Source of the DNA: Alphaproteobacteria bacterium
Lineage (GTDB): Bacteria > Pseudomonadota > Alphaproteobacteria > CALMVH01
NCBI GenBank assembly: GCA_965199265.1
Contig: CBDAQV010000004.1
Coordinates: 128,884-192,883, forward strand
DNA length: 64,000 bases
Reading direction: 5' to 3'
Below, one piece after another: positions 12,007 through 55,251 of the stretch. Below the pieces are notes generated by a model. The model did not search any database, had not been told where the DNA came from, and worked only from the letters and a program-made list of their open reading frames with translations. The position numbers and the translations under genes are program-made. Position 1 is the first letter of the stretch, and each line of letters opens with the position of its first letter.

Positions 12007-12149
12007 TTTTGGTTTCCAGTCATGAGAACGTATAGCCGCATAGATGAGAGTACATCCGTCCTAACGCAAGATGGTCTGCGGGATGATTAGGTGTAGACGA
12101 TCGTTTGAGACTGCAAATTGGCTCTGTCATTCCGGCCGAAAGGCCGGAT

Positions 12150-13060: not shown

Positions 13061-13128
13061 CCATTCCTGGACAGTCGCGGCTACATGTTCTTTCAGAGAT
13101 TAATACTGTGTCTTCGCACGGTATGACG
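13061..13128 (+). repeat. ~68-bp direct repeat, copy 2
   Basis: See copy 1. It lies ~160 bp upstream of the Suv3-like helicase start. Confidence 0.6.
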
Positions 13129-13287
13129 GCACGATGGATAGGGACGAGTTCCCGAGCCATCGCGCTTCTCGTCCAGGCTACGACGATCAAGGTCACCGTC
13201 AGGCAAGGGTGCCGGACATTGCAATCGCGCCGCCGCCGGTAGATATAAAGGCGGACGCATCTGATCTGTCGCGCGTGGGGAGGGAAG

Positions 13288-15699
13288 ATGGACACGGTAT
13301 CTCGATCCCTGTCGCACCCCCGCGTCCTCGCGATCCTCGGCCCCACCAACACCGGCAAGACCCATTTCGCCATCGAGCGCATGCTGGGGCATCATTCCGG
13401 CATGATAGGCCTGCCGCTCCGCCTGCTGGCGCGCGAGGTGTACGACCGCGTCGTTTCCCTGAAGGGCGAGCGGATCGTGGCGCTGATCACCGGCGAGGAG
13501 AAGATCGTGCCGCGCCAAGCCCGGTATTTCGTCTGCACGGTGGAAGCGATGTCCTCCGACCGTCCGGTCGACTGCCTCGTGGTCGACGAGATCCAGCTCG
13601 CCAGCCATCCGGAGCGCGGTCACGTCTTCACCGACCGGCTGCTGCACGCGCGCGGGATGGAGGAGACGATCTTCTGCGGCGCGGAAACAATGAAGCCGGT
13701 CATCACCGCGTTGGTGCCGGGGGTCGAGATCCTCACCCGCCCGCGCCTGTCGCAGCTGACCTACAGCGGCTACAAGAAGCCGGCGCGTTTGCCGCCCCGC
13801 TCGGCCATCGTCGCGTTCTCCGCCACCGAAGTGTACCGGATCGCCGAGTTCATCCGTCAGCATCGCGGCGGGACGGCGGTAGTGCTGGGCGCGCTGTCCC
13901 CGCGCACGCGCAACGCCCAGGTCGAGCTGTTCGAGAAGGGCGAGGTCGACTACCTCGTCGCCACCGACGCCATCGGCATGGGCCTCAACCTCGACATCGC
14001 GCACGTCGCCTTCGCCCGCGATTCCAAGTTCGACGGACGGAACGGACGCCGCCTGTGGCCGGAGGAAGTGGCGCAGATCGCCGGCCGCGCCGGGCGGCAC
14101 ATGCGCGACGGCACCTTTGGCACCACCTTCGAACTCAAGGGTTTTGCAGGCGAACTGGTCGAGGCGATCGAGGAGCACCGCTTCGATCCGATCGCGAAGC
14201 TGTACTGGCGCAACACCCACCTCGATTTCTCCAGTCCGCGCGCGCTGCTGTCCAGCCTCGACCGCCGCCCCGACCTGCGGCTGTTCGCGCAGAGGCACGA
14301 CGCCGACGACCACCGCGCGCTCAAAGCGCTGACCCAGCGGCTGGAGGGCGAAAAGCGAACGCTCGGCCGCGAACGCACCCGGCTGCTGTGGGAAATCTGC
14401 CAGATCCCCGACTTCCGCAAGATCATGTCGGACGACCACGTGCGGTTGCTGGGCGAAATCTTCGATCATATGAGCGCCAAACCGGGCAGGTTGCCCGCCG
14501 ACTGGGTCCGGCGCGAGATCGAGGGCCTCGACAACCCGGTGGGAACGATCGAGATGCTGACTGCGGGCCTCGCCGCGATCCGCACCTGGACCTATGTCAC
14601 CGCCAAGACAGGCTGGGTGCAAGGCGCGGAGGAACTGCACGCGGCGGCGCGGGTGGCGGAGAACCGGATCTCCGACGCGCTGCACGCCGCGCTCAGCGAA
14701 CGCTTTGTCGACCGGCGCAGCGCCAGCCTGGCGCGCGCGACCGGAACCAAGGAACTGCTGGCCGGCGTGCGCCCCAATGGCGAGGTGGTGGTGGAGGGGC
14801 ATGTGATGGGAGAGTTGAAGGGCTTCTGCTTCGCGATCGACGAGACGGTCGCCAGCGCCGACCGCGAGCTGGTGCTGAAAACGGCAAATCGTGCGCTGCA
14901 AGCCGAGATCAGGGAGCGCGTCGCCGGTTTCGCCGCGCTGCCCGACAGCGTCTTCTCGCTTGAACTGGACGGAGGTGTGGCCTGGCAGGGCGCACGCATC
15001 GCGCGGCTGGGCCCGGGGCCAAGGCTGCTGGAGCCGGAGGTGGTGCTGGAAAAAAGCGAACTGCTCGAGCCGGCGCAGCAGGGGCAGGTGGAGCATCGCC
15101 TGTCCGCGTGGCTGCGCACCGAACTGCGCCGCCGCCTGCAAACGCTGTTCGGGCTGACGAAGGCGCGCGAGGACGCCAGCCTCGATCCCGAACTGCGCGG
15201 CATTGCCTTCGTTTTGCTGGAAGCGACGGGCTCTGTCCCGAATACCTATCCCGACCTGACCGCATCACAGGTCAAATGGCTGCAAAGCCGGGGCGTGACC
15301 ATCGGAACGCGCTATCTGTACATGAAAGGATTGCTGAAAACGGAGGTCACAGGCCTGCTGGCGCTGCTATGGAACGTGCAGCGCGGCACCAAACTGGCGC
15401 CGCCCAAGCCCAACCGCGTGTCCTTGCCCGTGCTGGAGGAAACCGCATCGTTCTACGGCGCCTTGGGATACCCGGTGATGGGTACGCGCGCGGTGCGTAT
15501 CGACCGCCTGGACGAGCTGGCGGCCGCTCTGGCGAGCGGCATGGAGATCAAGCCCAAGCAGCTGACCCGGCGCCTGACCTGCACCCCTCGCGAAGCCCAG
15601 CTGGTCATCGACGCGCTGGTGCGCAGGCCCGCCAAGGCCAGACCCGACCACCGCTTCCGCCAGCTGCCATTCGCCGGGCTGCAAGAGGCGATGGAGTAA
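13288..15699 (+). CDS. Suv3-like ATP-dependent RNA helicase (superfamily 2)
   Basis: It has a Walker A motif ILGPTNTGKTH, DEIQ (motif II), SAT, and LVATDAIGMGLNLDI...QIAGRAGR motifs. The 803-aa size and long C-terminal extension are typical of alphaproteobacterial Suv3 homologs. Confidence 0.8.
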   Translation: MDTVSRSLSHPRVLAILGPTNTGKTHFAIERMLGHHSGMIGLPLRLLAREVYDRVVSLKGERIVALITGEEKIVPRQARYFVCTVEAMSSDRPVDCLVVDEIQLASHPERGHVFTDRLLHARGMEETIFCGAETMKPVITALVPGVEILTRPRLSQLTYSGYKKPARLPPRSAIVAFSATEVYRIAEFIRQHRGGTAVVLGALSPRTRNAQVELFEKGEVDYLVATDAIGMGLNLDIAHVAFARDSKFDGRNGRRLWPEEVAQIAGRAGRHMRDGTFGTTFELKGFAGELVEAIEEHRFDPIAKLYWRNTHLDFSSPRALLSSLDRRPDLRLFAQRHDADDHRALKALTQRLEGEKRTLGRERTRLLWEICQIPDFRKIMSDDHVRLLGEIFDHMSAKPGRLPADWVRREIEGLDNPVGTIEMLTAGLAAIRTWTYVTAKTGWVQGAEELHAAARVAENRISDALHAALSERFVDRRSASLARATGTKELLAGVRPNGEVVVEGHVMGELKGFCFAIDETVASADRELVLKTANRALQAEIRERVAGFAALPDSVFSLELDGGVAWQGARIARLGPGPRLLEPEVVLEKSELLEPAQQGQVEHRLSAWLRTELRRRLQTLFGLTKAREDASLDPELRGIAFVLLEATGSVPNTYPDLTASQVKWLQSRGVTIGTRYLYMKGLLKTEVTGLLALLWNVQRGTKLAPPKPNRVSLPVLEETASFYGALGYPVMGTRAVRIDRLDELAAALASGMEIKPKQLTRRLTCTPREAQLVIDALVRRPAKARPDHRFRQLPFAGLQEAME

Positions 15700-31783: not shown

Positions 31784-34642
31784 GTGACTCCGGACTATTT
31801 CATCCGCAAGTGGAAAGCCGCGACCCTGTCCGAACGGGCGGGGGCGCATTCGCATTTCCACGATCTGTGCGCGCTGCTTGACGAGGCGACGCCCAGCGAA
31901 AGCGATCCCACGGGGGCGACCTATGCCTTTGAGAAAGGCGTGACCAAGACCACCGGCGGCGATGGCTGGGCCGACGTGTGGAAGCGCGGCTGCTTCGCGT
32001 GGGAATACAAGGGCAAGGGCAAGGACCTGCAGGCAGCCTACGCGCAATTGCAGCGCTACGCCGTCGCGCTGGAGAATCCGCCTTTGCTGATCGTCTCGGA
32101 CATCGACAGTATCGAGATTCACACCAACTGGACCAACACGGTCCGCCAGATACACCGCATCACCCTGGACGATCTGGCGGACGCGAAGGAGCGCCAGAAA
32201 CTGAAATGGGCGTTCAGCGATCCCGACCGGCTGAAGCCGGGCGAAACGCGGCAGGGCCTGACGGAGAAAGCGGCGGAGCAGTTCGCCAGCCTCGCGCAGC
32301 GCCTCAGGGCGCGCGGCTACGAGGCCCCGCGCGTCGCGCACTTCGTCAACCGGCTGGTGTTCTGCATGTTCGCGGAGGATGTCGGCCTGCTGCCGGACAA
32401 GCTGTTCATCAAGCTGATGCAGGCAGGCGCAAAGAACCCTGCGGCGTTCGAGCAACTGGCGCGCGGCCTGTTCGGCGCGATGCGCGGCGGCGGCTTCCTC
32501 GGCCTCGACCCGGTGCCATGGTTCAACGGCGGGCTGTTCGACGACGACGACGCGTTGCCGCTCGACCGGCACGACCTGGAACAGACGCTGGCGGCGGCGC
32601 GGCTCGATTGGGCCGAAATCGACCCTTCCATCCTCGGTACCCTGTTCGAGCGCGGGCTGGACCCCGACAAGCGCAGCCAGCTCGGCGCGCACTACACCGA
32701 CCGCGACAAGATCATGCTGATCGTGGAGCCGGTGATCGTCCGCCCGCTGGCGCGCGAGTGGGAAGACGCCAGGGCCGAGGCGCAAGCCTTGCTGGACCGG
32801 GCCGAGGCGGCGAAATCGCCCGCCGCGCGCACCAAAGCGCGCAAGGAGGCGGAGGCCGTCTGCATCCGCTACCTCGAACGGCTGAAGAATTTCCGCGTCC
32901 TCGACCCCGCCTGCGGCTCGGGCAATTTCCTGTACCTGGCGCTGCTGGCGCTGAAAGACATCGAGCACCGCGCCAATCTGGAATCCGAGGCCATGGGCTT
33001 GCCCCGCCGCCTTATCATCGGTGTCGGACCCGAAAACCTGCTGGGGATCGAGATCAACCCCTACGCCGCCGAACTGGCGCGCGTGTCGGTGTGGATCGGC
33101 GAAATCCAGTGGATGCTGCGCCACAATTACGGCACCTCGCGCGACCCGATCCTGCGCTCCCTCAACACCATCGAATGCCGCGACGCCCTGCTGAACCCGG
33201 ACGGCACGGAAGCACAGTGGCCGAGGGCGGACGTGATCGTGGGAAATCCGCCGTTCCTGGGTGGGAAGCGCATGCGTTCATCGCTTGGGGATGGCTATTG
33301 CGCCACGCTCTTCAGCATATATGCGAAGCGAGTTCCCGCCGAGGCAGACCTTGTCTGTTACTGGTTTGCCAAGTCGCGCGAAGCGCAACAAAACGGATTG
33401 CTGAAGCGCGCCGGACTGGTCGCCACGAACAGCATTCGCGGCGGTGCGAACCGTGACTGTCTTGAGCGCATCGTTGCAGCCGGGAGCATTTCCGCCGCAT
33501 GGAGCGATGAGCCGTGGGTTCTGAACGGCGCTGCCGTGCGCGTGTCCCTCGTCTGCTTTGATCCGAAGCCTGGCGAAAGCGCCATGCTGAATGGCAAGCC
33601 TGTTACCGTGATTCGCAGCGATCTGACTGCCAACGCCTCCGACCTTACGACTGCGCGACAACTCGCCTCCAACCGGAGTGTCGCTTTCATGGGCGATACC
33701 AAAGGGGGAGCATTCGACATTCCCGGCGAGCTTGCTCGTGAATGGCTGCAATTGCCCGCGAATCCGAACGGCAGGCCGAACAGTGATGTGATAAAGCCAT
33801 GGGCAAATGGCATGACTGTTACCCGGCGTCCTGCGGATATGTGGGTTGTTGATTTCGGCTGGACCATGAGCGAGGCAGAAGCCTCATTTTATTCGGCTCC
33901 ATTTGCCTATGTGGCAGATTGCGTTAAGCCGGAACGTCTGAAAAATAACCGGGAAGCGTACGCAAAGTTCTGGTGGCGGCATGTTGAACCGCGACCAGGA
34001 ATGCTTGCTAAGTTTCAAATTGTAAAACGTTTCATAGTGACAACTCGTGTAGCGAAGCACCGGACGTTCGTTTGGATGAGCTTACCGACACTTCCCGATA
34101 GCGCAGTAATTGCTATAGCCCGCGACGACGATACGAGTTTCGGCATCCTGCACAGCCGGTTTCATGAATTGTGGTCATTGGGCCTGTGCACATGGCTTGG
34201 CGTTGGGAACGATCCGCGCTACACGCCCCGAACGACGTTCGAGACATTCCCCTTCCCGCCGGGGCTGGAGCCGCACGTGCCTGCCGCCCTCTATGCCGAC
34301 GACCCGAGGGCGCAGGCGATTGCCGAGGCCGCGCGCACATTGGTCGAGGCGCGGGACCGTTGGCTGAACCCGCCCGAACTGATCGACATCGTGCCGGAAG
34401 TCGTGCCCGGCTACCCCGACCGCATCGTGCCCCGCGACGCGCGCGCCGCCGCGATCCTAAAAACCCGCACCCTCACCAACCTCTACAACACGCGCGGCAA
34501 ACCCGAAGGCGCATGGCTGGACCACCTGCACCACGACCTCGACTCAGCCGTAGCCGCCGCCTACGGCTGGCCCGCCGACCTGCCCGACGAGGACGTGCTG
34601 GCGCGGTTATTGGAGATGAATTTGGGAAAGCACATCTCCTGA
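31784..34642 (+). CDS. MmeI-family Type IIL restriction-modification enzyme (single polypeptide: N-terminal D-X9-E-X-K endonuclease, gamma-class N6-adenine methyltransferase with NPPF motif, C-terminal TRD)
   Basis: It aligns with MmeI blocks I recall: GWADVWKRGCFAWEYKGKGKDL (D-X9-EYK), VNRLVFCMFAEDVGLL, QLGAHYTDRDKI, VLDPACGSGNFLYLAL (motif I) and VIVGNPPFLGG (motif IV). GC drops from ~64% to ~52% over the TRD portion (33250-34200). Confidence 0.8.
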   Translation: MTPDYFIRKWKAATLSERAGAHSHFHDLCALLDEATPSESDPTGATYAFEKGVTKTTGGDGWADVWKRGCFAWEYKGKGKDLQAAYAQLQRYAVALENPPLLIVSDIDSIEIHTNWTNTVRQIHRITLDDLADAKERQKLKWAFSDPDRLKPGETRQGLTEKAAEQFASLAQRLRARGYEAPRVAHFVNRLVFCMFAEDVGLLPDKLFIKLMQAGAKNPAAFEQLARGLFGAMRGGGFLGLDPVPWFNGGLFDDDDALPLDRHDLEQTLAAARLDWAEIDPSILGTLFERGLDPDKRSQLGAHYTDRDKIMLIVEPVIVRPLAREWEDARAEAQALLDRAEAAKSPAARTKARKEAEAVCIRYLERLKNFRVLDPACGSGNFLYLALLALKDIEHRANLESEAMGLPRRLIIGVGPENLLGIEINPYAAELARVSVWIGEIQWMLRHNYGTSRDPILRSLNTIECRDALLNPDGTEAQWPRADVIVGNPPFLGGKRMRSSLGDGYCATLFSIYAKRVPAEADLVCYWFAKSREAQQNGLLKRAGLVATNSIRGGANRDCLERIVAAGSISAAWSDEPWVLNGAAVRVSLVCFDPKPGESAMLNGKPVTVIRSDLTANASDLTTARQLASNRSVAFMGDTKGGAFDIPGELAREWLQLPANPNGRPNSDVIKPWANGMTVTRRPADMWVVDFGWTMSEAEASFYSAPFAYVADCVKPERLKNNREAYAKFWWRHVEPRPGMLAKFQIVKRFIVTTRVAKHRTFVWMSLPTLPDSAVIAIARDDDTSFGILHSRFHELWSLGLCTWLGVGNDPRYTPRTTFETFPFPPGLEPHVPAALYADDPRAQAIAEAARTLVEARDRWLNPPELIDIVPEVVPGYPDRIVPRDARAAAILKTRTLTNLYNTRGKPEGAWLDHLHHDLDSAVAAAYGWPADLPDEDVLARLLEMNLGKHIS

Positions 34643-35403
34643 TGCCCGGATCATTGGGCATTCTTGAAGACGCGCTAGGAAGCGTAGGCTGGTTTATACC
34701 TCCATACGTTTCAAACGGTTTCCTACATCAAGCTGCGGGAGTTATCATACAAGAGTCTGGTACGTTTACCCAGACCAATTTGGAGCGCATCCTTCGTATA
34801 ATTTACGATCCACGCCGTCTGGCGGCGATGGTGACGATTAGATATCCCATTACACCAGTCATCCAAGATTATAAGATTATAATAGGCGAGTCTATTAAGG
34901 CACATTTTCTTGGACTCGATCATATTGCCGCAGCAGGCCTCATGCCTGTAATTGAGGGTGTTGGTCGGCAGCTCGCAATTGAAAGGACTATACCAAACGT
35001 GTCTCGCAAAACTTCTCCGGGAAAAATTATAACTCTTTTATGTGAGGACATTACAAAAGAGGCTTCATCTAAAAATATAGGAGATGTGAAAGAAATAGAG
35101 TCGATGATGAGTGCGTTCTCAGCTTTTTCAAAACAGTACATGTACGAGGAATCCGAAAATTACAAGCTGCCTGATCGTACAAACAGACATGGAATAGTCC
35201 ATGGGCGCTATAAAGATAAGGACTATGGATCTCCAATAAACTTCTACAAGTCTATAAACGCAGTAGATATGCTGACATACATGGCTTCTTTCCGAGGGCG
35301 GATGTTTTGCTTTGCGCCAGACTCTACCCCAGAGTCAGACTCTCTTGCAGAGTACTATCTTATTCTAAATAAAATTGCGGCGCTGCGGCCTGATACAATG
35401 TAA
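34642..35403 (+). CDS. hypothetical protein, low GC (~45%), translationally coupled to the MmeI-family gene; contains R-x4-H-G motif (NRHGIVHGRY) compatible with a HEPN-like RNase
   Basis: The ATG at 34642 overlaps the upstream TGA (TGATG). The 253-aa ORF has strongly AT-biased codon usage unlike the host. A terminator-like hairpin follows. Confidence 0.5.
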   Translation: MPGSLGILEDALGSVGWFIPPYVSNGFLHQAAGVIIQESGTFTQTNLERILRIIYDPRRLAAMVTIRYPITPVIQDYKIIIGESIKAHFLGLDHIAAAGLMPVIEGVGRQLAIERTIPNVSRKTSPGKIITLLCEDITKEASSKNIGDVKEIESMMSAFSAFSKQYMYEESENYKLPDRTNRHGIVHGRYKDKDYGSPINFYKSINAVDMLTYMASFRGRMFCFAPDSTPESDSLAEYYLILNKIAALRPDTM

Positions 35404-43451: not shown

Positions 43452-44168
43452 CTACAGGGTATTATGTAGTTTGGTGCGACTGCGTGGGTTCTGCGCTGCC
43501 AGTGCCTGGTCCAGGTCGTATTCCAGCATGAAGCGGCGGATGCTGTCCGGGCCTTTCACCTTGACCGCCTGCCACCCGGCGTTTTTCGCCCCGTCCAGCG
43601 CGTAATCGGCGTCATCGAGCAGGATCAGGTTCTTCGGCGGGTCGCGGTCATAATCCTCGCGAACAACTCGGCCCGCCACCTCGCGGGCGCGCATGTAGAA
43701 ACCGGGCTGAGGCTTGTAGAAGCCGAGGTCGGACGAGCAGGCGATGCCGTCGAACATCCGGCCCAAATCGCCGCCGCCCGGGCTCAGGAGGAAGTCCTTG
43801 CGCCGTCCGGTATTGTTCGTGCACAGGATCGTCGGGATGTCGCGCCGGCGCGCCCAGTCGGACAGTTCCTCGACAATGGGGGTGTTGCGAACAAATCCGG
43901 CGCGCAGCATGAAGTCGGCGACCTCGGCTGCCGGAATGGCCGGGTGCGGGCCCATCAGCCGGGCGATCTCGCCCTCATAATCGCCGCCGGTCAGAAGCTT
44001 CTCCTTGACCGCCCAGTCGCTGTCGGTGCGCATCACCCGTTCCAGGTCGAGCCCGCGCGCTTTCATGGCTTGCGCCAGCGGCGCGGCGGCGACGGGGTCG
44101 TGATCGACCAGGACGCCGTCGCAATCGATCATCAGGGCGTCGCAGTGACGGTAATGAGCAGCTCTCAT
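43452..44168 (-). CDS. HAD-superfamily hydrolase
   Basis: Motif I DALMIDCDGVLVD and a downstream LCTNN / DD motif are present. Confidence 0.7.
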   Translation of the reverse strand: MRAAHYRHCDALMIDCDGVLVDHDPVAAAPLAQAMKARGLDLERVMRTDSDWAVKEKLLTGGDYEGEIARLMGPHPAIPAAEVADFMLRAGFVRNTPIVEELSDWARRRDIPTILCTNNTGRRKDFLLSPGGGDLGRMFDGIACSSDLGFYKPQPGFYMRAREVAGRVVREDYDRDPPKNLILLDDADYALDGAKNAGWQAVKVKGPDSIRRFMLEYDLDQALAAQNPRSRTKLHNTL

Positions 44169-44320: not shown

Positions 44321-46888
<2,568 letters not shown>

Positions 46889-47005
46889 TCACCGGGAACG
46901 GGCAGGTTCCAACCTAGGATCATTGCCCGGAACGCCGATCAACAGCAAAAAAGTTCTTGTTATGTTCTTTATTCTACAGTATGATTTTAGTGCTCTGGAG
47001 GTAGA

Positions 47006-47854
47006 ATGTTCGAAGTTCAAAAAGCTATGCTGACGATCAACGGCCGAGGCCTGCTGTTTGCAGGCAAGCACGTCCTTGCGCCCCTAGGTTCCGCAACGCG
47101 ACGCTTTAACTTGGAATACGATCTTGAACCGGTTCTAGCTCAGCTCACTGCAGGCTATATGCGACCTGTCAATACCCGTACGGTGTCGCTGCTTTACTCC
47201 GCGCTAGCAGCTTGGAACAGGGGTGATTTTGGGCGTGCTGCTTACGACTTGATTCTGACAAGTCTTCCCGATCCGAAGGACAACACTAATTTTTACGAGC
47301 GCATCGAGGCCGTAGACAAGGCTATCGCGACAGGTCGCCGTCCAAAGGACGTTCTGAAAACGTTTGGCGTGAACCCTGCGTGGATGGACGAAGCCCGCGT
47401 TCCGGCCGGTCAGACCGATGCAGGCGAATGGGTTAGCGGCGATAACGATACAGGAGATGTCACAAATATTGCCGCTCACAGCGGAGATCCGTCCATCAGG
47501 TGGAATGCAAAGGTGAAAGCTCTGCCTCAATCGTCGCTCGATGCTTTGAGAACGGCCATGCGCCTCGAAGATTTGCCTGCAAATCAGTTCGATGATATGG
47601 CATGGATAATGGCCCAGGAGTCCCAGGGCGTCGTTGGTGTTCCGAACAATCGCGGTGGAAGTGCTAGTGGTCTTTTCCAGTTGCAGCCATCAAACTATCA
47701 TTTTTATCCAAACGGAGCGAAATCGATCGGAAATGCCGTTGAGGAGGCACAAGGAGGAATTCGCTATATGCTATGGAAGTACGGTAATGCCGCCAGAGCA
47801 AAAGCCGCATGGGTTAAAAATTATAATGTAAACCCTAACAATCCTTTTTGGTAA
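47006..47854 (+). CDS. hypothetical protein with C-terminal lytic-transglycosylase (SLT/lysozyme-like) motif; low GC (~47%); candidate peptidoglycan-targeting effector
   Basis: A GGAGG RBS precedes the start. AQESQGVVGVPNNRGGSASGLFQLQPSNY fits the SLT catalytic E-S...GLMQ pattern. GC is far below the host value. Confidence 0.5.
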   Translation: MFEVQKAMLTINGRGLLFAGKHVLAPLGSATRRFNLEYDLEPVLAQLTAGYMRPVNTRTVSLLYSALAAWNRGDFGRAAYDLILTSLPDPKDNTNFYERIEAVDKAIATGRRPKDVLKTFGVNPAWMDEARVPAGQTDAGEWVSGDNDTGDVTNIAAHSGDPSIRWNAKVKALPQSSLDALRTAMRLEDLPANQFDDMAWIMAQESQGVVGVPNNRGGSASGLFQLQPSNYHFYPNGAKSIGNAVEEAQGGIRYMLWKYGNAARAKAAWVKNYNVNPNNPFW

Positions 47855-47856
47855 AA

Positions 47857-48429
47857 ATGAAGTACATTCTCGTAGTGATGAGCCTATTCTTTCTCACCAC
47901 GGCAATTACGCATGCCGAAGAAACTCGTGATCTTTTTAAATACTATAATGTTAAGGAAATTTTTCGTGGTGGAAAACATGCTGTTGTGCTTCGAACAAAA
48001 CAAGATCATTTGATGCGCACGGCCCTGAGGGGGGGGTACGAGCTCCATAGAGTAGAATTCGCTGGCCACTACATTGTTCTCACGATTGGATGTGGTGCTG
48101 CCTGTTTCGGCGGCGCGGTGGTCGATGCCATCACCGGAAACGTGACGTGGTTCCCTTTCTTGGAAATGTCAGTGACCGATTATTTCGAGCCGGTTTCGTA
48201 CTGCCGCAACAGTCGCCTGATCCGCTTCGTGGGTGAAACCGCGCGCGACCCGCGCAACGCCGCTTATTTTTATGAATTGCGCAACGACCAGTTTCGTCTT
48301 GTGAAAACCGTCCTCCTGCCGCCCCCCAGGGACGGACTCATCGGCGATCCTCCCAAATGGCAGGACATGTACAGCAGCAATCCCGCCTATTGCACTCCCG
48401 TCAGCGAAACGCCGCGGAACTACCTGTGA
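47857..48429 (+). CDS. hypothetical periplasmic protein with signal peptide (MKYILVVMSLFFLTTAITHA); candidate cognate immunity protein; low GC
   Basis: It lies immediately downstream of, and co-directional with, the transglycosylase-like gene. It has the same low GC and a cleavable signal peptide. Confidence 0.5.
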   Translation: MKYILVVMSLFFLTTAITHAEETRDLFKYYNVKEIFRGGKHAVVLRTKQDHLMRTALRGGYELHRVEFAGHYIVLTIGCGAACFGGAVVDAITGNVTWFPFLEMSVTDYFEPVSYCRNSRLIRFVGETARDPRNAAYFYELRNDQFRLVKTVLLPPPRDGLIGDPPKWQDMYSSNPAYCTPVSETPRNYL

Positions 48430-48460
48430 AAGGCAAGTCGGATCTTGTGCGCTGAACGAA

Positions 48461-49285
48461 CTATTTATCTGCTCCACCTTCCGCCTGCCGCACCATGCGC
48501 AAGTGCGGGCGCTTGACTCCGATCAGCGGCGCGAGGGCGAAGCGGCCGAGCGCCGAGATCGAGGTGCCGCGCTTGAACGCGGCCTGGACCAGCTGGTTGA
48601 ATGCATCAGTCTCGAGCTGGACCAGCAGGATCTGCGACGGGCTGCCGTTCAGCTGCTTGCCGTCGGGCTTCTCGAAGAACACGTCGAACGCGCTCCACAT
48701 GTAGACGTGGATCTCCTCCGCCTCGCGCGTGCGCAGCGAGGGCGACAGCAGCCGGTCGGCCCGGCTGGCGACGTAGCCGCCCATCACGTCGCTGTCTTTG
48801 AGCAGGTAAAGATAATCGTACGCCGAGCGTGGGCCGAGGTCGATGGACTGGCGGGCATGCAGCAGAGTGCGCGGCTGCTCGAACGCCGGGTCGAACGCCG
48901 TATGGAGCATCATCGCCGCGGCGATGCGGCGCGCGGCGTGGTTGTAGCAGCTGCCTGGCTCGTAGGCGCGGAAGATCGACAGGGCCTGGTCCTCGGCTTC
49001 CTGGACCGGGCGGCGGCTTTCCAGCGTCGCCTGCACCGGATCGGTCATGCCGGCCCGAAGGCGCCACTCGGCGGGGGAGAACTGGACCGACTCCGGCAGC
49101 ACTGGCATGGCCTCGACGTCGACTTTCTCCGGCGGCATGAACTCGCCGCCTCCGCTTATGATTTCCAGCGCGCGCAGCACCGCCTCGACGGCCAGCGCCT
49201 GCACCGTGGACTCGCGCAGGCGGGCGAGGGTGCTAATCCGTTCGAGCTCCTGCGACGAAAGGGCGATGGCGAAGCGTTTGGGCAT
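48461..49285 (-). CDS. hypothetical protein (274 aa), host-like GC
   Basis: This long ORF runs in the same orientation as recF and gyrB. No family was recognised. Confidence 0.45.
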   Translation of the reverse strand: MPKRFAIALSSQELERISTLARLRESTVQALAVEAVLRALEIISGGGEFMPPEKVDVEAMPVLPESVQFSPAEWRLRAGMTDPVQATLESRRPVQEAEDQALSIFRAYEPGSCYNHAARRIAAAMMLHTAFDPAFEQPRTLLHARQSIDLGPRSAYDYLYLLKDSDVMGGYVASRADRLLSPSLRTREAEEIHVYMWSAFDVFFEKPDGKQLNGSPSQILLVQLETDAFNQLVQAAFKRGTSISALGRFALAPLIGVKRPHLRMVRQAEGGADK

Positions 49286-49314: not shown

Positions 49315-50442
49315 TTACGAGGGCGAATTGATCGGCGCCGCCACCCTGCCGCCTTCCACGTGCAGGAAAGTCGCCTGCCCGCGCAGGTCCTCGAAAGCGC
49401 CCGGCTCGGTCCCGCTCATCCACGCCTGCAGACCAAGGCCGGTAACGCGCGCGAACAGCGCCGTCCTACGCGCGGCATCGAGATGGGCGGTGATCTCGTC
49501 CAGCAGCAGGATCGGCGCGCCGCCGCCGCCGCCGCCGATCATGAGCCCGGCATTGGCAAGGATCAGCGCGATCAGCAGCGCTTTCTGCTCGCCGGTCGAG
49601 CACAGGGCGGCGGGCATGTCCTTGGCCGTATACCGCACGGCAAGGTCGCTGCGGTGCACCCCGATGGTGCAGCGGCCCGCGGCGGCATCGGCGCGCCGAT
49701 GTTCGGCCAGGATGTTGCGCAGCCAATCCTCGGTCTGCAGCGCGCTGTGTCCGGTCAGCCAGTCTTCGACTTCCCCACGCACGGCGACGCCCGGCTGGGG
49801 AAACACGCCGTCGGCTTCTTCTGCCTGGCAGGCACGATCAAGGCGTTGCGCGATGGCGAGGCGGCTGGCGGCGACCGCGACGCCCGTTTCGGCCAGTACG
49901 GTCTCGATCCCCTCCAGCCACGCAGGATGCCGGTCCTGCTCCAGCAGCTTCTGGCGTTCGCGCAAGGCCTGCTCGTAGCGGTTGACGCGGGTGGCGTGCG
50001 CCGGGTCGTAGCCGTAGATGACGCGGTCAAGGAAGCGTCGCCGGGCCGAGGAAGGCTCGGCGAACAGACGGTCCATGGCAGGGGTCAGCCACAGGACGGG
50101 CGCGACCTCCGCCAGTGCGCCCTGCGCGCGGTTGGCGCCGTCGATGCGCACGACGCGCCGCTCGGACGCGTCTTCCTGCCCGGTGCCGACTTCGCGGGTT
50201 CCGGCTTGTCCTGTGATTGCTCCAGCCACCGCCCAGGATTGAGCCTGCCCCGCTTGCGTCAGTTCGGAGAGTTTCGCGTTCCGCAAGCCCCGCCCGGGGG
50301 CGAGCAGGCTGATCGCTTCCAGCAGGTTGGTCTTGCCGGCGCCGTTCGGGCCGGTCAGCACGATCGGCGCCGGACCGGCTTCAAGCCGCAGGTGACCGTA
50401 GTTGCGGAAGGCGGTCAGCGTCAGGCGGGCGAGATGGGTCAT
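49315..50442 (-). CDS. recF: DNA replication and repair protein RecF
   Basis: Walker A motif LTGPNGAGKTNLLEAI and a C-terminal SGGQ-like / LLLDE region are present. Confidence 0.9.
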   Translation of the reverse strand: MTHLARLTLTAFRNYGHLRLEAGPAPIVLTGPNGAGKTNLLEAISLLAPGRGLRNAKLSELTQAGQAQSWAVAGAITGQAGTREVGTGQEDASERRVVRIDGANRAQGALAEVAPVLWLTPAMDRLFAEPSSARRRFLDRVIYGYDPAHATRVNRYEQALRERQKLLEQDRHPAWLEGIETVLAETGVAVAASRLAIAQRLDRACQAEEADGVFPQPGVAVRGEVEDWLTGHSALQTEDWLRNILAEHRRADAAAGRCTIGVHRSDLAVRYTAKDMPAALCSTGEQKALLIALILANAGLMIGGGGGGAPILLLDEITAHLDAARRTALFARVTGLGLQAWMSGTEPGAFEDLRGQATFLHVEGGRVAAPINSPS

Positions 50443-50831: not shown

Positions 50832-51950
50832 TCACACCCGCATCGGCATGATGACGTAGAGCGCGCTGGGGTCGCCCGTATCGCGGATGATGGTGGGACT
50901 GGCGGGATCGGCGATGGTCAGCTGGCAGCCGGTGCCCTCGATCTGGCTGGCGATGTCCAGCAGGTAGCGCGAGTTGAAGCCGATCTCCATCGCGGTGGAG
51001 GTGTAACTGACTTCCAGCTCCTCCGTCGCGCTGCCGCTTTCGGGGCTGGACGCCGACACCGTCAGCGCGCCCTTGTCGATCGACAGCTTCACCGCGCGCG
51101 ACTTCTCGGTCGAGATGGTGGCGACGCGGTCGACGGCGCTGGCGAACAGCCTCGGATCGACTTCCAGGACCTTGTCGTTGCCGCTCGGGATCACGCGCTC
51201 GTAGTCGGGGAAGGTGCCATCGATCAGCTTCGAGGTCAGGACGATGTCGTTGAAGGCGAAGCGCAGCTTGGTGTCCGATACCGCGATCTTGATCGGCGTC
51301 GTCGCCTCCTCGATCAGCTTGCGTATCTCGCCTACGGTCTTGCGCGGGATGATGATGCCGGGCAGGCCCTTGGCGCCGCCGGGCAGCGGCGTTTCCACCC
51401 TCGCCAGGCGGTGGCCGTCGGTCGCGACGGCGCGCAGCACGTCGACGTTGTCCGTCTTGGCGGCGTGCAGGTATATGCCATTGAGGTAGTAGCGCGTTTC
51501 CTCCATCGATATGGCGAAGCGCGCGCGGTCGATCAACTGCTTCAGCTCGGCGGAGCCCAGCTCGAAATCGTGCCGCATCGAGGCGGCCGCCATCTGCGGG
51601 AAATCCTCCGTCGGCAGGCAGCCCAGCTTGAAGTTCGAGCGCCCGGCGCGCACGGCCAGCTGCGTCCCCTCCGCGTTCAGTTCCAGCTCGACCTTGCCGG
51701 TCTCGGGCAGCTTGCGCGCGATGTCGTAGAGCGTGTGCGCCGGGGTCGTCGTCGCGCCGGGGCTGGTCACCTCGGCGGCGGTCGATTCGACGATCTCCAG
51801 ATCCATGTCGGTCGCCGTCAGCGACAGCTTGCCCGATTCGGCCTTCAGCAGGACATTGGACAGGATGGGGATCGTGTTGCGCCGTTCGACGACGCTTTGC
51901 ACGTGGGCGAGCGATTTCAGGAGCGCCGCGCGTTCGATCGACAGTTTCAT
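50832..51950 (-). CDS. dnaN: DNA polymerase III beta sliding clamp
   Basis: MKLSIERAALLKSLAHVQSVVERRNTIPILSNVLL is the canonical DnaN N-terminus. The 372-aa product has three domains. Confidence 0.95.
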   Translation of the reverse strand: MKLSIERAALLKSLAHVQSVVERRNTIPILSNVLLKAESGKLSLTATDMDLEIVESTAAEVTSPGATTTPAHTLYDIARKLPETGKVELELNAEGTQLAVRAGRSNFKLGCLPTEDFPQMAAASMRHDFELGSAELKQLIDRARFAISMEETRYYLNGIYLHAAKTDNVDVLRAVATDGHRLARVETPLPGGAKGLPGIIIPRKTVGEIRKLIEEATTPIKIAVSDTKLRFAFNDIVLTSKLIDGTFPDYERVIPSGNDKVLEVDPRLFASAVDRVATISTEKSRAVKLSIDKGALTVSASSPESGSATEELEVSYTSTAMEIGFNSRYLLDIASQIEGTGCQLTIADPASPTIIRDTGDPSALYVIMPMRV

Positions 51951-52131: not shown

Positions 52132-55100
52132 TCAGCTATGCCAAGCGGCGAGCACGGCCGCGTTGAGAGTCGCGTCACCCGGCATGGCAGCGCCCGTTGC
52201 CTGCGGATTGAAGCCGGGATGCGCGGCGGAAAAGCCTGCCATTGCGTTCACCAGCGTGTTCACCGCTGAATCAAGCTTCAGCCCGCTGCCGTCCACGATC
52301 TTCAATACCTGAGAGTAAGCATTGCCGTACCAGTTCTGGATCGTGACCTGGTCCCTGGTGCCCAGTACGTCGATCACCAGATTGTTGCCGACCTTTGCCA
52401 GCCATAGCCCGGTATCCGCAATGCCCGACGCGAAGTCCACCTGCCCAGCCGCCGCGTTCGCCGGAGCCACGCCGTTCACGATCGTGACCGCACCGTCGCC
52501 CCGGCCAAAGTCGTAGGTGTCCGACCCGCCGTTGCCTGTCAGAACGCTCGTTCCGCCCGCTTGTGCGTGTCCGCGTAATGTGTCGTCGTACTGTGTTCCC
52601 GTGACGCTGGTGTAACCGCCCAGGACCTGGCCGGAGACCGAGCTGGTTCCGGCGGAAAGGTCTACGGAGGCTCCTGCCGTCTGGCTGCTTTCGTCGAGGG
52701 TAAAGCTTACCGTCTGGACGTTTCCGGTGACCAGCGAAGCCTTGTTGACGCCGCTGAGCACCACGGTCTGGCCATTGTCGGATTTGATTGTCGTGCCGTC
52801 GATATTGAAGTTGCCGATCAGCGCCGTGGTCGGGGTGGCGCCGTAGGGAAGGATTTGCGCGCTTGCGATGGTCAGCCCGTTCATGAACCATATGACCGCT
52901 GGCGAGTCCGGGTTCGGCGTGTTCGCGGCCAGCAGGATATCGGCGTCTCCATCACCGTTGAAATCGCCGACCCCCGCGATGTGGTACCCCGGCAGTACCT
53001 GCGCGCCGTAGGCGCCGCCCAGCGCCGCTGCGCCGATCACCGTGCCGGTGCCGCTCATCTCCCACAATACCGGGGTGGCGGACCCGTTGTCCCACAGGAT
53101 GTCGCTGATGCCGTCGCCATTGAAGTCGCCGATCCACGCCTTGGTGGACGTCGCTCCGTAGGGCAGCACGGACGCGCCTGCCACGGCAAGGCCGTTCATG
53201 TACCAGATCACGGCGGGCGAGTTCGGGTTCGGGACGTTCGCCGCCCATAGGATGTCGCTTTTTCCATCGCCGTTGAAGTCACCGACGCCTGCGATGTGAT
53301 ACCCGGGCAGGACCGGCATCCCCGGCCCGCCGCCGATCCAACCGGCGGCGATGACCTGGTTGTTTTTCATCTCCCACAGGAACGGGGCCGCGCCGCCCTC
53401 GTCCCACAGAATGTCCGTGGTGCCGTCGCCGTCGAAGTCGCCGGCCCATACCTTGCTGCTGGCGCTTCCGTAGGGCAGGACCTCGCCTGAAACCAGCGTG
53501 CCGTTTCCAATGTTCCAGATCACGTCCGGCGCGAAAGGACTGGCATTGTTGGCGGTCAGCAACAGGTCGCTGGTTCCGTCTCCATTAAAATCGCCCACCG
53601 CGGCGACGTGGTAGCCGGGCAGAACGTCCGACCCGAAACTTCCGCCCAGCGCCGCCGCGCCCTTGACCGCCGCGCCGTTCAGTTCCCAGGTCACGGGCGT
53701 GAGCGAGCCGTAGTTCCACACAAGGTCGCTGATGTCGTAGTTCGAGGTCGCGTAGGACGTCGCGCCCATCAGCTGTACGGCGTCGCCGCTGCTTCCCGCG
53801 TGGAAATTGGTTATCGTATTGGTCAGGCCGGCCACCGTGAAACGGAATTGGTTCTGCCCGGCCGACCCGGTCAGGGTGCCCGATGCGCCGGGCAGGACCA
53901 GGTGAATGGGCACGACCACGTGAACGGGCACGCCGGTCGGCGCAGGCGCGGGAGCGCTGGAGCCTGTGCTTCCCGAAGTCGTTCCCTGGGAAGGGGGCGT
54001 GGCGGCCGGCGCATTGGGCAGGACTTCGATGATGACCGGATCAGCCGACAAGCCGACCGAAACCGTGGCGGCATCGGTCAGCGACTGGATGGCAGACGTC
54101 CCTTGCATCGGATCGTAGACATTGATGTTCTGGAAAGCGGAGCCGAAAGTAACGGTTACATTCGAAGTCGGCGGCGTTGTGTCCGCGGTGCCGTTGGAAA
54201 CGGCCGCATTGTCATTCCAGATGACGATATCGAAAGCCCCGTTCGATTTCTCCAGCAGCGTCGAAGTGGCGGTGCTTGGCAGGCCGGCCAGGCTGTAGTC
54301 CAGCGTCCCCGGGTTCGTCACAGTGCCGCTGTCGGCCAGGATGGCGAACAGGTCGTGCAAGTCGTTCGCGGCCGCCTTGGGCGTTCCGTCGGCGTTGAAC
54401 AGGCCGAAATTGCTCTCCTGATCGGCAGGCGAGTCCTCGTCATCCATCAGTTCATAAAGGAAAGTTTTGGCAGCCCCGTCCTTGTAGCCGTCCAGAACGG
54501 CATTGAGATCGATGATGCCCTGGGTTTTCGGGTCTGTTACGCCCCAAGTCGAACTGCCGTAACCCGAGCTCGAAATGCCCGTCTCGGTGATATAGACAGG
54601 CTTTCCGGGAGCGCTGGCCTTGGCCGCGGCGATGCCGGACAGCATGTTGTTCTGCAACTGCTGGCCGACCCCGGCGTAAACGTGCCAGTTAGAAGCGTCT
54701 ACGTACTGGCCGACACTGGCCCCGGAACTGGCGTTGGCGGTAGATGCCGCCACGATTTTCACCCCGGCCAGACTGGGATCGGCTTCGACCGCGCTTTGCA
54801 GATTTTGATCGTCGAGGGCGCCCCAGGCAATGTTTCCGGTCGAAGACTCTCCGTTCAGCGTCAGCTTGTTGACATTGTATTCGTTCTCGCCTTCGATGCT
54901 TTCTATACTGCCCGGCGCGGCAGCTTCGAGAGTATTGTCGACCTGCAGATCCTTGGCGGCGTCGACCGTCGGACCATTCTGGAGCAGATCGAACTTAACG
55001 CCGGTTTGAGCGAGTGCGACGTATTCTGAAAGAGCCCAGCTGAAAGGGTCGCCATCGCGTATGTTCTTCACGCCGAGGTAGGCGACTGCGTTTTCGACGT

Positions 55101-55251
55101 TCTGGGCGCTTGAGTAGCCCGTTGTGTTGGACCATGTCAGATGGGCGTTTACCCCAACGGAATTGATAAAGCTGTTTACGCTTGCAGCCTGTACGGGCCC
55201 GGGTGAAGGTGCGCCTGTGGCCAACGCATCGTTTTGAATGCTAGCGACCAT
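52132..55251 (-). CDS. large secreted multidomain protein: N-terminal clan GH-A glycoside-hydrolase-like domain, >=4 FG-GAP/VCBS-type repeats (GDFNGDG[TKI]SD), RTX-like Ca-binding motif and T1SS-substrate-type C-terminal domain
   Basis: KPVYITETGISS is a clan GH-A nucleophile motif. GDFNGDGTSDLLL / GDFDGDGTTDILW / GDFNGDGKSDILW / GDFNGDGISDILW / GDFNGDGDADILL are the repeats. GNGGSDTYDFGRGDG is followed by ...QVTIQNWYGNAYSQVLKIV, the haemolysin-type Ca-binding related domain. The gene has an AT-rich upstream region. Confidence 0.8.
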   Translation of the reverse strand: MVASIQNDALATGAPSPGPVQAASVNSFINSVGVNAHLTWSNTTGYSSAQNVENAVAYLGVKNIRDGDPFSWALSEYVALAQTGVKFDLLQNGPTVDAAKDLQVDNTLEAAAPGSIESIEGENEYNVNKLTLNGESSTGNIAWGALDDQNLQSAVEADPSLAGVKIVAASTANASSGASVGQYVDASNWHVYAGVGQQLQNNMLSGIAAAKASAPGKPVYITETGISSSGYGSSTWGVTDPKTQGIIDLNAVLDGYKDGAAKTFLYELMDDEDSPADQESNFGLFNADGTPKAAANDLHDLFAILADSGTVTNPGTLDYSLAGLPSTATSTLLEKSNGAFDIVIWNDNAAVSNGTADTTPPTSNVTVTFGSAFQNINVYDPMQGTSAIQSLTDAATVSVGLSADPVIIEVLPNAPAATPPSQGTTSGSTGSSAPAPAPTGVPVHVVVPIHLVLPGASGTLTGSAGQNQFRFTVAGLTNTITNFHAGSSGDAVQLMGATSYATSNYDISDLVWNYGSLTPVTWELNGAAVKGAAALGGSFGSDVLPGYHVAAVGDFNGDGTSDLLLTANNASPFAPDVIWNIGNGTLVSGEVLPYGSASSKVWAGDFDGDGTTDILWDEGGAAPFLWEMKNNQVIAAGWIGGGPGMPVLPGYHIAGVGDFNGDGKSDILWAANVPNPNSPAVIWYMNGLAVAGASVLPYGATSTKAWIGDFNGDGISDILWDNGSATPVLWEMSGTGTVIGAAALGGAYGAQVLPGYHIAGVGDFNGDGDADILLAANTPNPDSPAVIWFMNGLTIASAQILPYGATPTTALIGNFNIDGTTIKSDNGQTVVLSGVNKASLVTGNVQTVSFTLDESSQTAGASVDLSAGTSSVSGQVLGGYTSVTGTQYDDTLRGHAQAGGTSVLTGNGGSDTYDFGRGDGAVTIVNGVAPANAAAGQVDFASGIADTGLWLAKVGNNLVIDVLGTRDQVTIQNWYGNAYSQVLKIVDGSGLKLDSAVNTLVNAMAGFSAAHPGFNPQATGAAMPGDATLNAAVLAAWHS

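Follow-up and report, generated by a model that had tools for sequence, protein, structure and literature searches.

Introduction

Orphan effector-immunity pairs that lie away from type VI secretion system (T6SS) clusters are well known, and the lysozyme inhibitor Ivy has been reported to inhibit lytic transglycosylases (LTs). T6SS effectors of the LT type are toxic only when directed to the periplasm, and one of them, Tae17 of Acinetobacter baumannii, is a bifunctional protein that combines LT with amidase activity (PMC11796386). In phage T4, the gp5 virion lysozyme is inhibited in the periplasm by Spackle (PMC7677548), and lysozyme domains also occur in portal, tail, and capsid proteins, remnants of which have been acquired by host genomes (PMC5512222). 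Here we describe a two-gene island in a 64,000-nucleotide stretch (the window) of contig CBDAQV010000004.1 from an Alphaproteobacteria bacterium. The island lies beside gyrB and encodes a 282-residue protein with a putative C-terminal SLT-type LT domain and no apparent export signal (P1), directly followed by a 190-residue protein with a predicted signal peptide (P2). We find that the arrangement of a signal-less LT ahead of an exported protein recurs as a genuine two-gene module, and that P2 is a divergent member of a very large uncharacterized family, for which we coined the name P2fam. On balance, we favor a reading in which P1 is a toxin, or a virion lysin, and P2 its periplasmic immunity protein; the main interest of the locus lies in the large unannotated family that it exposes, more than in this orphan pair.

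Each of the described systems shares part of its architecture with the P1-P2 pair. As in the T6SS LT effectors (Tse3/Tsi3, equivalent to Tge1/Tgi1, and Tae17), a putative glycan-strand-cleaving enzyme without a signal peptide is encoded directly 5′ of an exported protein, and the contexts of P2fam include a T6SS cluster whose effector joins a Tae3-type amidase to an LT domain. However, neither P1 nor P2 is related in sequence to Tge/Tgi or to any T6SS effector or immunity family in Pfam, NCBIfam, PHROG, or the PDB, so that the Tge/Tgi-like identity proposed in the initial annotation of this DNA is not sustained; moreover, no T6SS gene was found near the window pair or near any P1-type LT, and P2fam greatly exceeds any single effector family in size and for the most part occurs without it. 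The gp5/Spackle pair likewise consists of a virion lysozyme-fold enzyme and a small Sec-exported neutralizer supplied by one element, for which the portal-LT and the tail-associated lysin of two phage contigs described below (L107 and L104) offer parallels, whereas P1 would be an SLT-type LT rather than a T4-lysozyme-type enzyme, the window pair is chromosomal with no prophage around it, no sequence similarity between Spackle and P2 was detected, and P2 has no curated phage or Pfam match. Ivy, MliC/PliC, PliI, and PliG are also small exported proteins, encoded by scattered solitary genes, that shield peptidoglycan from lysozyme-fold enzymes; P2fam differs in having no match to their Pfam families and in being recurrently encoded beside its putative target. 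The polyvalent, MuF, and portal-fused phage effectors provide a parallel for an enzymatic domain carried on a portal C-terminus, as seen for the LT of the terminase-portal phage L107, but P1 has no portal or MuF part and that group has not been described as having an exported partner. Finally, pesticin and Pim combine a signal-less modular protein, ending in a lysozyme-fold killing domain, with periplasmic immunity, and one P2fam pair is borne on a small plasmid; here the differences are that P1 has no recognizable receptor or translocation domain, that most P1-type LTs are too short, and that there is no sequence similarity. By analogy, the pair may function like Tge/Tgi or gp5/Spackle while standing outside every named effector, immunity, or inhibitor family.

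A Foreign Two-Gene Island beside gyrB

P1 (47006..47854) and P2 (47857..48429, read from its ATG) lie on the plus strand between gyrB (44321-46783) and a native 274-codon gene, ORF3 (48461..49285), in a region (43-52 kb) where the housekeeping genes are all on the minus strand. The initial annotation had placed the pair between recF and gyrB on the opposite strand; its presence there and its strand stand, but ORF3 separates it from recF (49315..50442, minus strand). When the window was aligned with two relatives, L014 and L003, homology ended after GGTTTTTCAAAGGAAATACG (~46880) and restarted at the ORF3 stop codon (48461), and we therefore bound the island at 46881..48460 (~1.58 kb), with the ORF3 stop codon on one side and the conserved region upstream of gyrB on the other. 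The site is empty in L014, where recF, ORF3, and gyrB are contiguous and the ORF3-gyrB spacer measures 169 bp, and the closest genome relative, L003 (RecF 75% identical), also lacks the pair at this site. Composition agrees with these alignments: GC content is 51.3% for 46900-48430, higher than the ~47% first estimated, 51.5% for the whole island, 51.7% for P1, and 52.4% for P2, against 64.5% for the window, of which the P1-P2 stretch is the lowest-GC 1.5 kb. GC at third codon positions (GC3) is 0.51 in P1 and 0.60 in P2 versus 0.83-0.92 in gyrB, recF, dnaN, and ORF3. The pair is thus a true insertion and compositionally foreign, as had been supposed from the ~65% GC of the genome. We found no flanking direct or inverted repeats at the island and no tRNA, integrase, or insertion sequence adjoining it.

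Within the island, 5′ of P1 and on the same strand, a consensus scan picked out a candidate σ70-like promoter (TTGTTA-17-TATGAT, 46957..46985; a pattern match only), and a GGAGG sequence (46996-47000) is found 5 nt ahead of the P1 ATG. P2 starts 2 nt past the P1 stop codon, a gap that suggests translational coupling of the two genes.

P1 can be divided into an N-terminal orphan region (residues 1-~116), a linker (residues ~117-162) containing the motif R-V-P-A-G...G-E-W, and a C-terminal domain (residues ~163-282, 47492..47851). We accept the C-terminal ~120 residues, on the strength of their motifs and profile matches, as a divergent SLT-type LT domain: the pattern AQESQ...GGSASGLFQLQPS...IRY recognized in the initial annotation is present, the segments IMAQES (containing E205-S206), GLFQL, and EEAQGGIRY vary little or not at all, and E205, S206, G222, L223, and Q225 are conserved. 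Glu205 (codon 47618..47620) is invariant in a 9-sequence alignment and, in a 14-sequence alignment, is missing only from the decayed copy in L100, a Paraburkholderia megaplasmid. Since family-1 LTs carry their catalytic residue in an E-S motif, this conservation points to Glu205 as the probable catalytic acid, and P1 is presumably an active enzyme. The Pfam SLT profile (PF01464) was matched by 10 of 14 LT-family members scanned singly (best E 3e-5), while the nearest matches of P1, one from each of three independent libraries, were all sub-threshold, namely PF18013 Phage_lysozyme2 (E 2e-3; 18.7 bits, with the cut-off at 28.2), NF052397 (E 6e-6; 26.6 bits, with the cut-off at 40), and the PHROG transglycosylase family phrog_4602 (E 5e-3). 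Sequence and profile searches of the PDB found no relatives of P1 or of the LT family, and a Foldseek search of P1 against the PDB and BFVD returned only non-significant rows (a GH23 chitinase, Slt, and tape-measure proteins).

Signal peptides were assessed throughout with a hydrophobicity and AXA-site heuristic. By this measure the P1 N-terminus is, as the initial annotation had it, not signal-peptide-like; it also has no lipobox, and signal-peptide-like N-termini were found in none of the 14 LT-family proteins. A signal-arrest-release (SAR) endolysin reading was also considered for the P1 N-terminus, in which the hydrophobic stretch is short and charged. A predicted β-strand at the N-terminus spans KAMLTIN/KTMLTLD, which we take, loosely, to resemble a TonB box. 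Among 5.8 billion proteins, P1 has one full-length relative, P0002 (61% identical, encoded in locus L001), one partial relative, P0003, and six further matches to short proteins that have only the LT domain in common with it; for the N-terminal ~116 residues, searches of viral contigs, phages, and plasmids found none. The context N-terminal to the constant LT domain thus varies, being an orphan domain in P1, a short His-rich tail in other members, or a phage portal.

These N-terminal extensions have some features of their own. Ahead of the LT domain, P1 (residues 128-142; 47387-47431), P0002, and P0003 share the motif R-(V/I)-P-A-G-x(4-6)-G-(E/D)-W-(V/T). It weakly resembles (E 0.11) the sequence ARDDHGMWTSEDG in the tail of the L107 portal-LT (residues ~452-465), which hints that the P1 linker may be derived from the tail of a phage structural protein. 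The short free-standing P1-type LTs (L099 5959-6345, L074 257-637, L089 5537-5854, and L100 5932-6207) begin instead with a His-rich tail of pattern H-x-H-x-H-R-(P/Q)-(I/V/F)-K, as in PHAHHHRPFK or HHVHHHRQIK, and the N-termini of an LT subfamily comprising P0004-P0009 are likewise rich in His and Ala. Such tails might bind metal or act as tags for delivery.

The N-terminus of P2 (MKYILVVMSLFFLTTAITHA, 47857..47916, followed by EE) has an uncharged hydrophobic region with a Kyte-Doolittle value of 3.1 and a small-x-small site, with cleavage predicted between THA and EE, in agreement with the cleavable signal peptide called at first sight. The public gene call for P2 is a 138-residue N-terminal truncation that starts at MRTALRGG and misses the signal peptide; we adopt the 190-residue reading because the upstream residues are conserved in the L001 homolog, which has a signal peptide of its own. 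Mis-calls of this kind may be part of the reason why the family has gone unnoticed.

Recurrence of the LT-P2fam Module

A P1-type LT gene lies directly 5′ of a P2fam gene, on the same strand and with a gap of 0-70 nt, in L001, L074, L089, L091, a Caballeronia megaplasmid, and a phage contig. In L001, the P1 homolog is followed by the P2 homolog beside an unrelated deaminase gene. On the megaplasmid of Caballeronia sp. NK8 (L099), a 128-residue LT is followed 3 nt later by P2fam, whereas on that of Paraburkholderia caribensis MBA4 (L100) the LT is reduced to 91 residues, with loss of the catalytic segment, and P2fam is intact. Among 80 metagenome P2fam loci, fetched with one family motif drawn from a 15-sequence subset and hence not an unbiased sample, there were five in which an LT-domain profile placed an LT gene immediately 5′ of P2fam and on its strand; three of these LTs (L074, L089, and L091) are intact, and two (L059 and L076) show visible decay. 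Three loci in all (L059, L076, and L100) therefore combine a decayed LT with an intact P2fam gene, and loss of the toxin with retention of the immunity gene is the usual fate of toxin/immunity pairs.

An all-versus-all comparison of the proteins encoded within 2 kb of 90 P2fam genes identified the LT as the only recurrent neighbor family, the other upstream neighbors being heterogeneous housekeeping genes. In every locus the GC content of the module lies 5-25 points under that of its flanks, which indicates repeated horizontal acquisition. A signal-less LT with an exported protein is thus a real, recurrent two-gene module, and this part of the effector/immunity arrangement seen in the initial annotation stands, being conserved in L001, L074, L089, L091, and L099.

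A degenerate relative of P2 was also encountered without a P1 gene. This copy (L002 577-981) is nearly identical to the L001 copy over their common part, is without a signal peptide, stops ~45 residues short at the C-terminus, and sits between an unrelated low-GC 136-aa open reading frame (ORF) and a UvrD-like helicase gene.

P2fam, a Large Family of Exported Proteins

An exhaustive HMMER search recovered 2,033 representatives of 50%-identity clusters at E≤1e-3 and 467 at E≤1e-10, while a word-indexed search with P2 returned one relative only. Most members are 150-200 residues long, and signal-peptide-like N-termini are present in 56 of 65 single-domain members. The family core reads FAGHY...(W)GCGxxC...DxxTG...PF...(CC)...SRL...G...NE, onto which P2 places F68, A69, G70, H71, Y72, G78, C79, G80, C83, G94, P100, S119, L121, and G126; P2 lacks the CC pair and has a 40-residue C-terminal extension in common with the L001 homolog. 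P2 is a divergent P2fam member. In a minority of cases P2fam forms a domain of a larger protein, with PG_binding_1 present in 3 of 61 members and fusions to Sel1 or propeller domains also occurring, and one member is fused to the Imm_superinfect domain (PF14373).

P2fam has no sequence match in Pfam, NCBIfam, PHROG, or the PDB, and no Ivy, MliC/PliC, PliG, or PliI profile was matched in Pfam scans of P2 (E≤1) or of 61 family members (E≤1e-3). A Foldseek search of P2 against the PDB and BFVD gave nothing significant, with propeller-like proteins only among the non-significant rows, and a literature search found no paper describing a family such as this. The initial annotation had taken the occurrence of P2 independently of P1 as grounds for giving up the pairing, and P2fam is indeed widespread in this way (2,033 clusters compared with a handful of P1 relatives). 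Because the independent occurrences are either orphans or lie beside other LT-type enzymes, however, they broaden the immunity reading rather than refute it.

Members are also found near mobile elements: on two Acinetobacter plasmids, one of 85-90 kb from A. baumannii, the species of the T6SS effector Tae17, and one of 61 kb from Acinetobacter sp. YH12068_T, P2fam genes adjoin IS1008 (IS6-family) transposase genes (L114 742-1242 and L116 3992-4489).

Phage, Plasmid, and T6SS Contexts

The closest distinct relatives of both window genes are encoded together on L107, a 34-kb viral contig with the gene order large terminase, 678-residue portal-LT, P2fam (P0017), 285-aa ORF, and prohead protease. 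The portal domain (PF04860) occupies residues 108-428 and a P1-type LT, 60% identical to that of P1 (E 4e-35), the C-terminus (residues 571-672); P0017 is 37% identical to P2 and is its best non-trivial match. Portal-LT and P2fam sit in an HK97-like head module, and the stretch encoding the LT and P2fam has 37-41% GC in a phage of 66% GC. L107 carries further low-GC morons (980-2525 and 7097-7954), consisting of two His_Phos_1 genes 5′ of the terminase gene and the 285-aa ORF, which has no family match.

In a second phage, L104, the P2fam gene overlaps the stop codon of a gene for an 803-residue protein that matches phrog_6922 over its full length, phrog_90 ("endolysin") at residues 502-719 (E 2e-16), and phrog_1047 ("tail associated lysin"). 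We rely on these PHROG annotations, as a PDB search did not confirm a likeness of the lysin domain to λ lysozyme R. In a third phage, L106, P2fam is a moron on the opposite strand between the capsid and connector genes. Such occurrences are rare: among 2.9 million viral contigs P2fam was found in only 6 and the LT in only 1, and neither P1 nor P2 had a match among 50,697 phage genomes.

P2fam also occurs with larger signal-less proteins. It forms the only cargo of a 6.1-kb mobilizable Enterobacter plasmid together with a convergent gene for a signal-less 723-residue protein, the first 537 residues of which are homologous (E 2e-42) to a 1162-residue protein of Rahnella aquatilis HX2, and the C-terminal domain of which gives a weak but collinear alignment (E 0.007) with the L104 lysin domain. 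The Rahnella protein is encoded directly after vgrG in a canonical T6SS cluster and combines an amidase domain of the Tae3 type (PDB 4HZ9, E 1e-21) with one of the LT type (PDB 9UDH, E 2e-9); 4HZ9 has been identified as a Tae3-type amidase (PMC11796386). It is followed by genes for three small proteins, the third of which is P2fam, and then by a PAAR-like gene. The two genes between effector and P2fam (L117 14988-16010) encode proteins of 185 and 149 residues with N-termini that look signal- or lipoprotein-like by eye, and neither protein matched Tai3 or any PDB chain. Judged by sequence, then, the partners of P2fam are signal-less LT- or lysozyme-type proteins of at least three unrelated families, distributed over three mobile or weapon contexts; the P1-type LT domain itself was seen only in phage or free-standing form, and never in a T6SS context.

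Proposed Function and Alternative Explanations

In the reading that we favor, the island would be a horizontally acquired two-gene cassette with its own promoter. P1 would be a peptidoglycan-cleaving LT that uses Glu205 and is made without an export signal, and, because it has none, could not reach the producer's own wall by the Sec route; it would act on a cell wall from outside the producer cytoplasm, whether through a particle, an injection device, or release. P2 would be exported by Sec to the periplasm, where it would bind and block the LT of P1, and probably related incoming LTs as well, and so serve as an immunity or exclusion protein. What argues for this logic of effector (or lysin) and immunity is that only P2fam carries an export signal, that the LT decays while P2fam is kept, and that the module has been acquired horizontally again and again. 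We consider it somewhat better than an even chance that a toxin, or virion lysin, with periplasmic immunity describes the window pair. The nearest relative points to an origin in a phage particle and the family context also includes T6SS; delivery may be by either route.

Several observations weigh against this reading. P1 itself matches LT models only below their curated thresholds, and its AlphaFold2 model (9-sequence alignment, pLDDT 56), like that of P2 (2 sequences, pLDDT 52), is of too low a quality to confirm a fold. A scan of 31.8-59.2 kb of the window revealed no delivery machinery. Roughly 85-90% of the sampled P2fam loci are solitary and lie beside unrelated housekeeping genes; in two scans of the genes upstream of such copies, the families listed (25/61 and 25/34) were housekeeping ones, a form of survey in which rarer hydrolases could be missed. 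The single motif used to collect the metagenome loci also limits what their frequencies can say. In the Rahnella cluster, three small, apparently exported proteins follow the effector, any of which might be the one that matches the LT. Furthermore, the LT subfamily P0004-P0009 is conserved beside an ABC-F gene with no P2fam nearby, so that LTs of this fold can occur unpaired and need not be toxic.

One rival explanation, though one we think rather unlikely, is that the pair is a phage remnant in which the LT was a virion lysin aiding DNA entry and P2fam a Spackle-like lysogenic-conversion factor against superinfecting phages, so that P1 would be a hitch-hiker and P2 would have been selected for anti-phage or anti-lysozyme protection. 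The L107 genes, which lie between the portal and prohead protease genes and are the closest distinct relatives of both P1 and P2, agree well with this, as do the P2fam gene directly after the tail-associated lysin in L104, the L106 moron, the Imm_superinfect fusion, the persistence of P2fam beside decaying LTs, and the precedent of Spackle (PMC7677548). Yet P1 and its 61%-identical homolog keep intact full-length ORFs with an N-terminal region that is not phage-like, matches in the phage genomes and viral contigs surveyed are absent or scarce, and the window scan (31.8-59.2 kb) turned up no further phage genes. The phage alternative raised in the initial annotation survives as a connection to virion-associated lysins, and not as a link to an endolysin, holin, or spanin cassette. 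If P1 were instead orphan cargo carried on the Hcp, VgrG, or PAAR protein of a T6SS elsewhere in the genome, with P2 as the periplasmic immunity protein matched to it, the array of effector and immunity genes downstream of vgrG in Rahnella, where P2fam stands beside an LT-domain effector, and the related Enterobacter plasmid protein also paired with P2fam would find a ready explanation; so would the short (~128 residues) signal-less P1-type LTs found with P2fam on Burkholderiaceae megaplasmids, which by their size would suit Hcp-borne cargo. We regard this as unlikely, since neither the scanned part of the window, as had been noted at the outset for secretion systems in general, nor the surroundings of any P1-type LT locus yielded a gene for a T6SS component, PAAR, VgrG, Hcp, or adaptor, since scans of P1 and P2 matched none of the known T6SS marker families, MIX and FIX included, and since the P1-type LT has the phage and free-standing distribution described above. 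In particular, with the closest distinct LT relative (60% identical) fused to a portal and the best non-trivial relative of P2 encoded next to that portal, a T6SS route for the window P1 is unsupported.

In the main rival to the inhibitor reading, P2fam, most members of which are solitary and adjoin housekeeping genes, would have a general periplasmic role unrelated to LTs, for example as a metal- or thiol-dependent protein acting through its His and Cys residues or as a cell-wall helper, and be merely co-mobilized with LTs or assist them. The conserved H, C..C, and CC residues might make up a metal-binding or redox center, and the members fused to PG_binding_1, Sel1, or propeller domains are not beside toxins. 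This role seems improbable to us, however, in view of recurrent neighbors that are only of LT or lysozyme type, come from several unrelated families, and are all signal-less, of the retention of P2fam where its partner decays, and of the Enterobacter plasmid, a small mobilizable replicon with P2fam and a lysozyme-like protein as its sole cargo. A pesticin-like bacteriocin, in which the N-terminal region of P1 would bind a receptor and mediate TonB-dependent import, the LT would kill, and P2 would protect the producer, accords with the order of signal-less N-terminal region, linker, and lysozyme-fold C-terminus next to an exported partner, and with the colicin-plasmid-like character of the Enterobacter pair; it is nevertheless very improbable, given that most P1-type LTs have only a ~40-residue His-rich tail and no import domain, that the N-terminal domain of P1 has no detectable relatives, and that no lysis or release gene is present. 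Almost no weight can be given to two further ideas for which the LT-type motifs of P1 speak, namely that P1 is a housekeeping enzyme of the Slt/MltE type or that the pair is a classical phage lysis cassette (endolysin with spanin or holin). The housekeeping enzyme, named in the initial annotation as one with a signal peptide and conserved at this locus in relatives, is contradicted by the absence of a signal peptide or lipobox in P1, by the foreign composition, and by the lack of the pair at the same site in L014 and L003. The lysis cassette is contradicted by an island that holds two genes only, without holin or spanin, by a P2 with an AXA-type site, no lipobox Cys, and no C-terminal hydrophobic anchor by eye (no transmembrane prediction was run), and by the lack of phage-genome matches; both ideas fail on the features tested.

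Extending the toxin-immunity reading to the whole family, we tentatively propose, with less assurance than for the window pair, that P2fam is a very large family of periplasmic inhibitors directed against lysozyme-fold, glycan-strand-cleaving enzymes, a shield exchanged among T6SS, bacteriocin-like plasmids, and phages. It would be Spackle-like in phages, its solitary copies would be orphan immunity or anti-phage genes, the window pair would be one cognate unit, and the LT domain would move between phage portals and free-standing genes. If P2fam does neutralize LTs, a function would be at hand for a large unannotated exported family of soil and host-associated Proteobacteria, Bacteroidota, and their plasmids and phages, and one immunity fold would link T6SS warfare, bacteriocin-like plasmids, and phage superinfection. 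The family would then also be a genomic marker by which upstream genes become candidate signal-less cell-wall toxins and virion lysins, and it would supply natural protein inhibitors of LTs, enzymes of interest as antibiotic adjuvant targets.

Flanking Genes and the Insertion Hotspot

The left border of the island is formed by the native gyrB, the start of which is the ATG at 46783 (MADTAAK) and not at 46843, with an upstream region conserved to ~46880; beyond it lies a HAD hydrolase gene (43452-44168, minus strand). On the right, ORF3 is a border marker and not part of the island. It has 67.5% GC and a GC3 of 0.88, is 74-79% identical in L014 and L003 at the same recF-gyrB position, and has only these two homologs among the 5.8 billion proteins, both at this position in relatives. 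ORF3 has no Pfam, NCBIfam, or PHROG match and is a lineage-specific native gene within the replication-gene cluster, which continues through recF to dnaN (50832-51950, minus strand). In L003, lower-GC genes for membrane-anchored transglutaminase-like proteins (DUF553; 11134-12138 and 13092-14129) flank ORF3, and L014 has none. Comparison of the window, L003, and L014 thus shows the recF-ORF3-gyrB interval to be a hotspot in which the foreign cargo differs from genome to genome. On an unrelated metagenome contig, L069, a P2fam gene (2233-2940) is encoded 13 nt 3′ of gyrB (3-2246), so that a placement adjacent to gyrB was seen twice; for L069 this is probably coincidence.

The scanned part of the window also holds genes for an aminotransferase, a TetR protein, and a PfkB protein, together with two further loci. 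A second low-GC patch (~33.6-36.1 kb) covers the 3′ part of a gene for an MmeI-type type IIL restriction-modification enzyme (31784-34642, plus strand) and, just 3′ of it, a low-GC ORF of ~250 residues (MPGSLGILEDALGSV..., 34650-35403, plus strand). Directly upstream of dnaN, a minus-strand gene (52132-55251) encodes a 1039-residue FG-GAP repeat protein with a hemolysin-type calcium-binding-related (RTX-like) domain, which may be an adhesin or toxin secreted by a type I secretion system.

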